From: an uncultured delta proteobacterium
GTDB lineage: Bacteria; Desulfobacterota; Syntrophobacteria; BM002
Direction: 5' to 3'
NCBI GenBank assembly: GCA_963712115.1
Contig: CAVQGX010000020.1
Span: forward strand, 187,880 to 251,879
Length of the DNA stretch: 64,000 bases
Shown piece after piece: positions 41,071 through 53,148 of this stretch (positions within the stretch are counted from its first letter, which is position 1; the number at the start of each line of letters is the position of its first letter). The position numbers and the translations under genes were made by a program. Below the pieces are notes generated by a model. The model did not search any database and was not told the origin of the DNA. It saw only the letters and a list, made by a program, of their open reading frames with translations.

Positions 41071-41205
41071 GCTCTCAGCGATCAGCAGACAGCTGTCAGC
41101 TGGAGAAATGCCTAAAATGAACTAAAGTGAACTAAAATGCCTAAAGTTGCTTAAAAGAAAATTTCCTGCCTATGGTTTTTTCTGAGAGCTGACAGCTGAA
41201 TGCTA
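41071..41205. repeat. CAGC/GCTG heptamer arms enclosing CTAAA periodic repeats
   Basis: CTCTCAG CGATCAG CAGACAG CTGTCAG..AATGCCTAA AATGAACTAA AGTGAACTAA..CTGAGAG CTGACAG CTGAATG. Confidence 0.75.
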
Positions 41206-41209
41206 CTTC

Positions 41210-41737
41210 TCACAGTCCTTTCTTTTCAAACCACCAAAAAAGCACCAGAGCACCGACAATCATAACTGGCACTATTACCCAATGACTTAATCCCAAGAGC
41301 TGAGGCAAAGTGATTTCGCCTAAATTTCCCCAAGTGAGAATGGTGGTTTTGAGAGTGGGGTAAACTTCGGCAAAAATAGCAGCCCCGACAAGCATGCCAA
41401 CAATTCCCCAGAGGGCATCCCACCGGCCCTCACCAAGAGCCCCAGCTGAAGTGCCCGGGCAATAGCCCAAAAGCCCCCAACCGGCTCCGAAGATCAATCC
41501 ACCAATGATATTTCCGCCCAGATTAGTAGATTTTACCGAAAGTTTGATCAGCCCCATGTCTTTGAGAAGATAAATGCCAACCATGCCAACGAGAACAGTG
41601 GAAAGCATGAACTTAACAATAGTCATGTCCATCAATCTCAGGGCTCCGAGTTGCTTGTCATAACGAAGTACACGACCTTTTTGCAAGAAGAAGCCAAAGA
41701 AAATACCGGTGACAAGTCCATAGATGAGCACTTTCAT
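41210..41737 (-). CDS. YeeE/YedE-family sulfur/selenium transporter, second half
   Basis: FGFFLQKG, GGLIFGAGWGLLGYCPGT, hydrophobic. Confidence 0.88.
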   Translation of the reverse strand: MKVLIYGLVTGIFFGFFLQKGRVLRYDKQLGALRLMDMTIVKFMLSTVLVGMVGIYLLKDMGLIKLSVKSTNLGGNIIGGLIFGAGWGLLGYCPGTSAGALGEGRWDALWGIVGMLVGAAIFAEVYPTLKTTILTWGNLGEITLPQLLGLSHWVIVPVMIVGALVLFWWFEKKGL

Positions 41738-41743
41738 GGCTGC

Positions 41744-42259
41744 TTACCTCCCACCGTAGAGAATCCTGGCGACGACAAGACCACCAGCAAAAAAACATAT
41801 GAGGGCTATGTATCCACTAATCGCCAGCTGAGCCGAACCGCTCAGTCCGTGGCCGCTAGGTCAACCCCCAGCCAGTCTGGCCCCGAACATGGCCACAGCC
41901 GCGCCCAGGAAGGCAACGGTGGCCCTCTTGCTAAGGCTGCTGCCAAAACGGTTTTTCCACATGTCAGGCAGAGCCTGCCAGCGGAAGCTTGCCGAGGTGA
42001 TCGATGAGATGAGCGATCCCAGAAAAATGCCAAAAACAAACATCCACTGCCAGTCAATCTTGGGTGTTTCGCTTTTAAAGTAAGCAAGTTGCGAAACCCG
42101 CTCCGGCGCAAGTAGTCCTTCGATCATTCCGGCGGAGCGGACAAAGGATGTGGAAGCGCCGAAGTACTTACCAGCAATCAAGACTGACAGTACCAAGACT
42201 AAGCCGCTCAATGCTCCAGCCAGATAGGGACTCCAGCCATCATCTGCTCTGTGGTTCAT
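41744..42259 (-). CDS. YeeE/YedE-family transporter first half, probable selenoprotein (UGA=Sec at 41861-41863), 171 aa
   Basis: WSPYLAG, FGAST, FGARLAGG-UGA-PSGHGLSGSAQLAISGYIALICFFAGG..* stays in frame to a TAA at 41744, which overlaps the next gene's RBS. Confidence 0.88.
41823..41853 (-). promoter_or_regulatory. SECIS-like hairpin
   Basis: CUGAGC-GGUUCG-GCUCAG stem-loop; the G-led loop starts 21 nt after the UGA; extendable lower stem. Confidence 0.7.
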
Positions 42260-42541
42260 TTTTCACCGACCTCCTTTCTGCTTCAACATGGATGGGCACT
42301 GCTTATTTTATCAGGCTGAGATTAAATACTATCTTCGCATACATAGAAATGTGAACACTTTAACATGGCAGATTGGCTAGGCACAAGATTTTTCAACCCT
42401 TTTAAAGATTATGGTTGGTGGCAGATGGGTGCGGAGCGCAATCCTTTGCTAAGGTAGGGAGAAGGTAAATATTACATGGGAATGTTGGAATGCTTTCTTC
42501 TGACTCCTGAATTCTGGCTCCTGGCTCCTTATAGAAACTAG

Positions 42542-42728
42542 CTAGTGTCCATCCAGTAAAATCCTGGTGGACAATAGCTGGAGATTCCAATTCATAAATG
42601 AGCAATTTTGCGGAAGGTCAAGGAAATTAAGGGATTGCGCGGAGACGTACTGAAGTACGTCGCACAAGAAATCTCGCAGATTGACGCAGAGATTCCGCAA
42701 AAGGGCCATTTATGGATGGAAGCTAGCT
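42542..42728. mobile_element. CTAG-ended hairpin plus MITE with a central ACGTAC..GTACGT dyad
   Basis: CTAGTGTCCATCCAG..CTGGTGGACAATAG; TTCCAATTCATAAATG..CATTTATGGATGGAAGCTAG. Confidence 0.65.
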
Positions 42729-43266
42729 AGATATACATTACCATAATGGTGAGATCTGATTGATTTCCCTCAAAGTCCTTAACAAAACCTCTCAGAGAGG
42801 CGATCTCATTGAAACCTAGCTTTCTAAATATAGTACGGGTTTCCACCGAAGTGGGTGCAATCTCTGCGGTGAGCTGCTCCAGACCAAAGTAAGCAGCTAT
42901 CTCTATCAATTCTTGAATAAGACGAGTGGCTAGACCTTTTTGCCGGTATCCGAGATCATTGGTGATACGGATCTCTCCTTGATGTTTAGTCCAACCAATC
43001 TGATTGAAATGTAAGGTGGCATTGGCCACAACCCTTCCCTTATCCAGAGCGAGCATTGGCAAGACCACATCATAGTCCAAATCGTAAATCCAGTTTGCAA
43101 TCACCTTGGGGTCGGTAACGTCGTCCTTCAAGCCCATTCGATCCTCGGGGGGCATTTTCAAAAAATACTCGTGCAAAGCCTGTTGGTCTTCTTTTCTAAG
43201 AGGCCTTAGAGTGAGTTCGGTTCCATCCCTCAAAGTTGCTTTCTTGGGATATTCATAAAGTATCAT
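42727..43266 (-). CDS. GNAT acetyltransferase
   Basis: YPK..LRDG..LRPL..D; RQKGLA acetyl-CoA-binding motif; FRKLGF. Confidence 0.87.
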   Translation of the reverse strand: MILYEYPKKATLRDGTELTLRPLRKEDQQALHEYFLKMPPEDRMGLKDDVTDPKVIANWIYDLDYDVVLPMLALDKGRVVANATLHFNQIGWTKHQGEIRITNDLGYRQKGLATRLIQELIEIAAYFGLEQLTAEIAPTSVETRTIFRKLGFNEIASLRGFVKDFEGNQSDLTIMVMYI

Positions 43267-52704: not shown

Positions 52705-52800
52705 GGAGAGGTACCGAAGTGGTCGTAACGGGGTCGACTCGAAATCGACTTGTCCGGTGAATAGCCGGGCACGTGGGTTCGAATCCCACCCTCTCCGCCA
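52705..52800 (+). tRNA. tRNA-Ser(CGA)
   Basis: GGAGAGG acceptor, anticodon arm GTCGA-CT-CGA-AA-TCGAC, long variable arm, GGTTCGAATCC, encoded CCA. Confidence 0.96.
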
Positions 52801-53054: not shown

Positions 53055-53148
53055 GGAGAGATGCCCGAGTTGGCCGAAGGGGCACGACTGGAAATCGTGT
53101 GTTCCGCTAACCCCGGAACCGTGGGTTCGAATCCCACTCTCTCCGCCA
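53055..53148 (+). tRNA. tRNA-Ser(GGA)
   Basis: Anticodon arm CACGA-CT-GGA-AA-TCGTG, long variable arm, GGTTCGAATCC, CCA. Confidence 0.96.

Follow-up and report, generated by a model that had tools for sequence, protein, structure and literature searches.

A predicted selenocysteine codon at the substrate-binding cysteine position of a split YeeE/YedE-type transporter from an uncultured delta proteobacterium

The window analyzed in this study is a 64,000-nucleotide stretch of DNA from an uncultured delta proteobacterium, and its minus strand carries two adjacent genes that each encode half of a YeeE/YedE-type transporter (Table 1). The first gene is called as an open reading frame (ORF) of 132 aa that runs from the ATG at 42259 to a TGA at 41863-41861 and ends in FGARLAGG. 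Beyond this TGA the frame stays open for 38 codons, PSGHGLSGSAQLAISGYIALICFFAGGLVVARILYGGR, up to a TAA at 41746-41744, and the 6 nt GCAGCC separate this TAA from the ATG of the partner gene at 41737. The first-pass annotation, which had been made from the letters of the window, had proposed that the frame continues past the TGA to a TAA 6 nt before the partner, and the coordinates and translation bear this out. It had also pointed to a CUGAGC-GGUUCG-GCUCAG hairpin whose loop lies 21 nt past the UGA; this hairpin was found as described, at 41845-41828, where a 15-nt spacer precedes the stem and the loop begins 21 nt beyond the UGA. Elsewhere in the window TGA behaves as an ordinary stop codon, terminating 4 of the 24 ORFs of at least 250 aa. 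In the operon region, five promoter-like sites were found where 2.0 would be expected. The 467 bp that separate the start of the operon from the acetyltransferase-like gene upstream (42260-42726) contain no ORF of more than 68 aa and gave no Rfam match.

Table 1. Features of the split transporter locus in the window (coordinates are those of the window)
Feature	Coordinates	Strand	Basis
Full selenoprotein gene (predicted), PmpA-like YeeE/YedE half, 171 aa with U133 and a TAA stop	41744..42259	-	Translation with TGA read as U
In-frame UGA, putative selenocysteine codon (U133), column of Cys293 of Spirochaeta thermophila YeeE	41861..41863	-	Cys in homologues, TGA in relatives, alignment
SECIS-like hairpin CUGAGC-GGUUCG-GCUCAG, within coding sequence, codons L-S-G-S-A-Q	41828..41845	-	Sequence, covariation, Sec/Cys contrast
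38 codons and TAA stop 3' of the UGA, last transmembrane part, missed by the ORF caller	41744..41860	-	Conservation in Cys homologues, dN well below dS
GGGAGG, putative ribosome-binding site of the partner gene, within the read-through part	41747..41752	-	Sequence; function inferred
Partner gene, PmpB-like YeeE/YedE half, 175 aa, Cys93 (GYCPGT)	41210..41737	-	PF04143, PF20398, alignment to 6LEO
AGGAGG, putative ribosome-binding site preceding the ATG at 42259	42270..42275	-	Sequence; function inferred
Promoter-like pair of hexamers 5' of the operon, with no more than a weak match to the consensus	42326..42355	-	9/12 matches

The product of the first gene, referred to below as the selenocysteine (Sec) half, matched PF04143 (Sulf_transp) with 81.8 bits, against a cut-off of 27, over profile positions 175 to 309 of 310. 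The partner matched the same model (60.2 bits, cut-off 27) over profile positions 18 to 150, with an additional match of 32 bits to PF20398. No further PF04143 gene was found in the genome. When aligned to the YeeE protein of S. thermophila (StYeeE; 6LEO), residues 27 to 168 of the Sec half corresponded to residues 201 to 328, with U133 falling on Cys293 and R41 on Arg215, and the region past the UGA, including the Cys column and the last helix, covered StYeeE residues 293 to 328. Residues 6 to 112 of the partner aligned to residues 4 to 110, with Cys93 falling on Cys91; the equivalent of Cys22 was missing, the partner having L24 there. The first-pass reading of a split transporter that pairs a Sec half with a Cys (GYCPGT) half is therefore upheld, both halves being PF04143 proteins with Sec on Cys293 and Cys on Cys91. 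Both proteins scored 32 to 51 bits with the NCBIfam models for TsuA (NF041049 and NF052577), below their cut-offs of 400 to 645, and 22 to 27 bits with the models for the selenium-linked YedE/FdhT proteins (TIGR04112 and NF033796), below cut-offs of 200 to 350.

The two aligned positions can be set beside the structural and genetic work reported for StYeeE, where the path is lined by Cys22, Cys91, and Cys293, about 7 Å apart, where Cys293 makes a hydrogen bond to the thiosulfate bound in a positively charged periplasmic indentation, and where the C91A and C293A mutants fail to complement and the C22A mutant does complement (Tanaka et al. 2020, PMC7449682). The closest published counterpart in layout is the PmpA/PmpB pair of Serratia sp. 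ATCC 39006, which is described as the same arrangement of two adjacent half-size genes: PmpA resembles the C-terminal half of YeeE and has the Cys293-type cysteine, PmpB resembles the N-terminal half and has the Cys91-type cysteine, and a PmpA-PmpB heterodimer has been proposed (PMC11582611). The window pair differs in the predicted Sec at the Cys293-type position and in length (171 and 175 aa, versus about 130 aa in that description). Likened in this way to the published description, the window pair is by its layout a PmpA/PmpB-type split pair. It shares its fold family with YeeE/TsuA (6LEO and 8J4C; E. coli YeeE with YeeD/TsuB) and conserves the equivalents of Cys91, Cys293, and Arg215; however, TsuA is one chain of about 330 to 350 aa with three conserved cysteines, whereas here there are two chains and no counterpart of Cys22.

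A protein search with the Sec half gave 4685 matches. Among the 120 matches listed, 46 were exactly 132 aa long, with 88 to 99% identity, and terminated at GG, and homologues of 171 to 178 aa read through with GGCPSGHGLSG at the UGA column. In a six-frame search that covered 41 genomes, from the window's own outward through its genus, family, and class, 31 genomes had a match, and in 16 of these the match contained one in-frame TGA; of the 14 matches from the genus, 13 had the in-frame TGA and one (G014) had TGC. A scan of one genome per species contributed 80 more loci and, once 5 duplicates had been removed, 89 distinct motif-bearing sequences were available overall. At the column in question (GG[U/C]PSGH), TGA was present in 68 of these sequences and TGC or TGT in 21, a share that is biased, since the loci were ranked by how closely they resembled a Sec-form query and the relatives are not independent of one another; six rows outside the motif pattern would add three Sec and three Cys forms. 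The search for Cys/TGA pairs at this column that the first-pass annotation had suggested was thus productive. According to the record titles, Sec forms occur in Syntrophobacteria, Desulfobacterales, Syntrophorhabdaceae, Syntrophus, Desulfuromonas, Desulfovibrionaceae, Desulfonatronum, and some Nitrospirota metagenome-assembled genomes. In addition, the Sec form (GUPSGHGLSG) was found in two cultured type strains, Desulfatibacillum alkenivorans DSM 16219 and Malonomonas rubra DSM 5091.

Downstream of the UGA, the homologues are conserved as protein, which answers the second comparison raised at the outset, that of conservation past the UGA. Over 36 codons past the UGA, dN between the window and its relatives was 0.013 to 0.19 and dS was 0.20 to 1.67, with similar values in 60 upstream codons, and the differences past the UGA fell on codon positions 1, 2, and 3 in the proportions 545/194/1422. 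The excess of third-position changes and the low dN relative to dS indicate that the part after the UGA is translated and is under purifying selection. These data bear directly on the possibility that the TGA is a true stop codon, which would leave either a truncated 132-aa protein or a pseudogene whose open frame is a remnant of a Cys-containing ancestor. Such a reading would agree with the gene callers, which end the protein there, as in the many 132-aa database matches, with the ability of TGA to terminate ORFs in this genome, and with the missing selC gene discussed below. However, it would have to account for the persistence of the TGA and the open frame in 68 distinct sequences from several orders, as well as for the selection on the codons beyond it. 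Furthermore, the 132-aa product would be cut off before the conserved Cys column and the last helix, and the putative ribosome-binding site of the partner gene sits within the read-through part. A true stop is consequently very improbable.

The TGA itself could be a TGC or TGT that was misread in sequencing or assembly, and the relative in the window's genus that has TGC at this column, with 87% protein identity, gives this idea some substance. Against it, the same TGA is present in nearly all matches from the genus and in independent assemblies from many studies. The window stretch was contained wholly or partly in 20 public runs, 6 of which were RNA libraries. A contig from an independent DNA run (41202-42064) had no variant at 41861-41863, nor did an RNA-library contig (41712-42193) that also spans the junction with the partner gene; the RNA-library evidence consists of contigs, and so it attests to the presence of the sequence rather than to its transcription. 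In one RNA run, bins in 41755-41902 were without cover, and the codon is not included there. The look for TGC or TGT in reads that had been proposed therefore found TGA in both the DNA-run and the RNA-library contigs, and an error at this codon is hardly credible.

Bacterial SECIS elements are stem-loops found immediately 3' of the UGA whose apical loop has a G near its beginning. The 60 nt that follow the UGA folded at -18.5 kcal/mol (z = -0.50), and 58 of 200 shuffled sequences were equally stable; as the fold of the single sequence is no better than that of shuffles, the case for the hairpin rests on comparison with relatives. The hairpin was complete in 63 of the 68 Sec forms, lacked one outer pair in 4, and was absent from 1, versus 3 complete, 1 nearly complete, and 17 absent among the 21 Cys forms. 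An Rfam scan of 41100-42800 gave nothing meaningful, its two matches being to eukaryotic families with E values of about 7.

The stem covaries. In the 68 Sec forms, the Leu and Gln codons that contribute to it occurred as CUG with CAG in 50, UUG with CAA in 12, UUG with CAG in 2, and CUG with CAA in none. Counted over 67 distinct Sec-form rows, pair 25-42 (first base of the Leu codon with third base of the Gln codon) was CG in 53, UA in 12, UG in 2, and unpaired in 0, and pair 24-43 (third position of a Gly codon, first position of a Leu codon) was GC in 39, AU in 15, GU in 1, and unpaired in 12, the window's own A.C mismatch being among these 12. As read from this alignment, the changes in the stem are compensatory and lie at synonymous sites. 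In the main register 90.3% of cells were paired, versus 24 to 50% when the 3' partner was slid by 1 to 3 columns, and none of 500 shuffles reached the observed covariation score. There are two inner registers, with either Ala/Val (as in the window) or Leu after Gly-Ser, and the outer three pairs are common to both.

The loop codons show a related contrast: GGU was used in 64 of 68 Sec forms versus 11 of 21 Cys forms and UCG in 54 of 68 versus 7 of 21, and the neighboring Pro and Gly codons vary freely, all four synonymous forms being used. The sequence GGTTC was also present at the loop position in 10 of the 21 Cys forms, and the stem arms encode the conserved L-S and A/L/V-Q, so their conservation, as judged from the aligned sequences, is partly a matter of protein constraint. 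The hairpin agrees with the spacing and loop rules for bacterial SECIS elements and appears to be kept by selection, and we refer to it as a predicted, SECIS-like element. By comparison across the alignment, the joint retention of the TGA, the open frame, and the hairpin in 68 distinct relatives is beyond what chance would be expected to leave.

The history of the Sec/Cys column was explored with a quick, unrooted tree of 86 rows, from which three loci (L035, L039, and L042) were omitted because of runs of N or short sequence. The tree was poorly resolved, with 41 of 83 inner branches open, and required at least 11 changes between Sec and Cys, 5 of which are forced by well-supported branches. 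Three Cys (TGC) relatives, L028 (the G014 sequence), L102, and L126, keep the hairpin and a fourth, L072, keeps it partly; all four are nested in Sec clades. Bearing in mind that the tree is unrooted, this pattern fits recent replacement of Sec by Cys in these four sequences, with the hairpin left behind as a fossil SECIS element.

The genome encodes most of the machinery that Sec incorporation would call for. Matches to selA (618 bits), selB (395 bits), and selD (382 bits) were all above the curated cut-offs. The selD gene (contig C22, 26789-27709) is itself of the Sec type, with a UGA at the classical position (GGUACK). On the window's own contig, 31 kb upstream of the window, an FdhA-like gene (C20, 156367-157638) has the motif CARLUH; both genes have hairpins whose loops start with GG, about 21 to 25 nt after the UGA. 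A molybdopterin-family match on another contig (C42, 164031-164456) likewise has one in-frame TGA. Of the four genes selA, selB, selC, and selD, whose presence the first-pass annotation had set as a check, three are thus in place, and the fourth, the tRNA-Sec gene selC, is missing from the assembly.

The assembly is 94.4% complete and consists of 70 contigs. Its best match to the tRNA-Sec model RF01852 (45.8 bits, cut-off 47) is a tRNA-Ser, and the near-threshold matches are two tRNA-Ser genes of the window (52705-52800 and 53055-53148, anticodons CGA and GGA) that lie 255 nt apart. Rfam scans of the selA, selB, and selD loci gave no tRNA-Sec, and ARAGORN listed 43 tRNAs for the whole assembly and no SeC. 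The Asp and Phe tRNAs were also missing from this list, which indicates that the tRNA set of the assembly is incomplete. A tRNA-Sec with the anticodon UCA was found in 3 of 5 relatives searched, with about 75 bits, and in two of them it was near a contig end. In G016 and G014, tRNA-Sec is flanked by a gene whose match in the window's genome is the last 1074 bases (357364-358437) of contig C31, a contig that ends about 340 bp short of the tRNA-Sec position in G016. On these grounds selC was probably lost in an assembly gap just beyond the end of C31, rather than being absent from the organism. Stretches of about 40 to 100 nt beside tRNA-Sec in G014 (locus L044, about 1264 to 1430) match dozens of places across the contigs of the window's genome with 75 to 97% identity and look like members of a dispersed short repeat family; such repeats may explain why contigs break near selC.

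The same evidence can be used to judge whether the UGA is read through without selenium, for example because a near-cognate tRNA for Cys or Trp decodes it or because the organism recodes TGA generally. This would sit well with the failure to find selC in the assembly and with homologues in which Cys works at the same column. A general recoding is difficult to reconcile with the TGA codons that end long ORFs in the window and with long ORFs that remain intact under translation table 11, and the hairpin accompanies the TGA rather than the Cys codon. Moreover, selA, selB, and selD are present, selD and the FdhA-like gene themselves have UGA at classical Sec positions, and the gene that neighbors tRNA-Sec in relatives was located at the end of C31. 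We therefore give selenium-free read-through only a very slight chance.

Taken on the comparative evidence, 41744-42259 is very probably a genuine selenoprotein gene in which the UGA is read as Sec; incorporation itself is a prediction. SelB and Sec-tRNA would decode the UGA at codon 133, directed by the mRNA hairpin 15 nt downstream, which is embedded in the codons of the conserved HGLSGSxQL motif. Translation would then run for 38 more codons and terminate 6 nt before the partner gene, an arrangement in which translational coupling to the partner is likely. The two halves, each of four to five helices, would most likely join as a pseudosymmetric heterodimer that has the same hourglass shape as full-length YeeE/TsuA.

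As predicted from the alignment and an assumed membrane orientation, Sec133 and Arg41 would occupy the outward-facing substrate-capture site (Cys293 and Arg215 in StYeeE), and Cys93 of the partner would lie at the center of the path, at the Cys91 position. Sec would thus stand in for Cys as the first contact of the substrate, presumably with some chemical gain. A sulfur oxyanion or a sulfane-sulfur species, such as thiosulfate or polysulfide, is the probable substrate.

The two halves appear to be treated differently with respect to selenium. In 87 of the 89 loci the partner stands beside the gene with the Sec or Cys codon, and it is the sole conserved neighbor. A second Sec was sought in the partner gene, and none was seen: the motif Cys was found by a pattern search in 56 of the 68 Sec-form loci, and 7 of the 12 that the pattern missed were read by eye and had GYCPGT in every case. 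Unlike the Sec half, then, the partner half, as judged from these sequences, keeps its Cys wherever its motif was readable.

The kind of selenoprotein described here is already known, and the window gene is a further member. Two reviews list YeeE/YedE proteins with a GUxSG motif as a predicted selenoprotein family, and so the caution voiced in the first-pass annotation, that similar cases might already be annotated, was well placed. The listed family, with WP_012471001.1 as its example, shares its Pfam family and its motif (here GGUPSG) with the window protein, and its assignment in the reviews is likewise computational; our comparison with it is by motif and Pfam family. The relevant portions of the reviews do not specify the half or the structural Cys concerned and mention neither a partner gene nor a SECIS element, and the main texts of Zhang and Gladyshev 2008 and Peng et al. 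2016, which the reviews cite, contain no YeeE/YedE term. The selenium-linked YedE/FdhT proteins (TIGR04112 and NF033796) belong to the same superfamily and occur in selenium-using organisms, but the window proteins score far below the cut-offs of their models, and YedE/FdhT is presented as a proposed selenium carrier and is not described as containing Sec in the relevant part of the source (PMC5322559).

Although the family is on lists of predicted selenoproteins, the literature searched yielded no experimental study of it. Nor did that literature, to which the supplements of the source papers may add, yield anything in print on Sec at the Cys293 position of a PmpA-like half, on the Sec/Cys asymmetry of the two halves, or on covariation in the SECIS element. 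What is added here is the assignment of the predicted Sec to the substrate-binding position of Cys293, the retention of Cys by the partner, and a SECIS-like element that lies within a conserved coding motif and covaries clearly. There is also a consequence for annotation, since the gene is miscalled as 132 aa both here and in many public assemblies, a call that omits the key residue and the last helix.

It can further be envisioned that this branch of YeeE proteins takes up its substrate by covalent chalcogen exchange, so that the pair would act as a catalytic relay and not as a passive channel. In such a relay, Sec would attack a sulfane-sulfur compound, polysulfide, or thiosulfate to form an Se-S intermediate, which would pass its cargo to the central Cys of the partner. 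A selenol is mostly deprotonated at physiological pH and so could not play the role of S-H...S hydrogen-bond donor that has been proposed for YeeE, which would point to covalent exchange instead. We offer this relay as a tentative idea and think it unlikely on balance; if it were true, the repeated switching between Sec and Cys would provide natural variants with which to test how cargo moves in YeeE-type proteins.

Apart from the partner and an oxidoreductase-like ORF that is the next most frequent neighbor, the genes around the 89 loci follow lineage-specific synteny, and no TusA- or YeeD-like gene recurs beside the pair, in contrast to the association of E. coli YeeE with YeeD/TsuB. The window's own neighbors, which from their translations we take to be PriA-like, acetyltransferase-like, and thiolase-like, and the conserved neighbors of the 89 loci gave no pointer to substrate or function. 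A pyridine-nucleotide-disulfide-oxidoreductase-like ORF, presumably related to CoA-disulfide reductases or NADH oxidases to judge from its N-terminal sequence, was found downstream on the same strand in 11 of the 89 loci, about 770 nt past the Sec/Cys codon (for example, in L122, L078, and L080), and 10 of these 11 loci have the Sec form.
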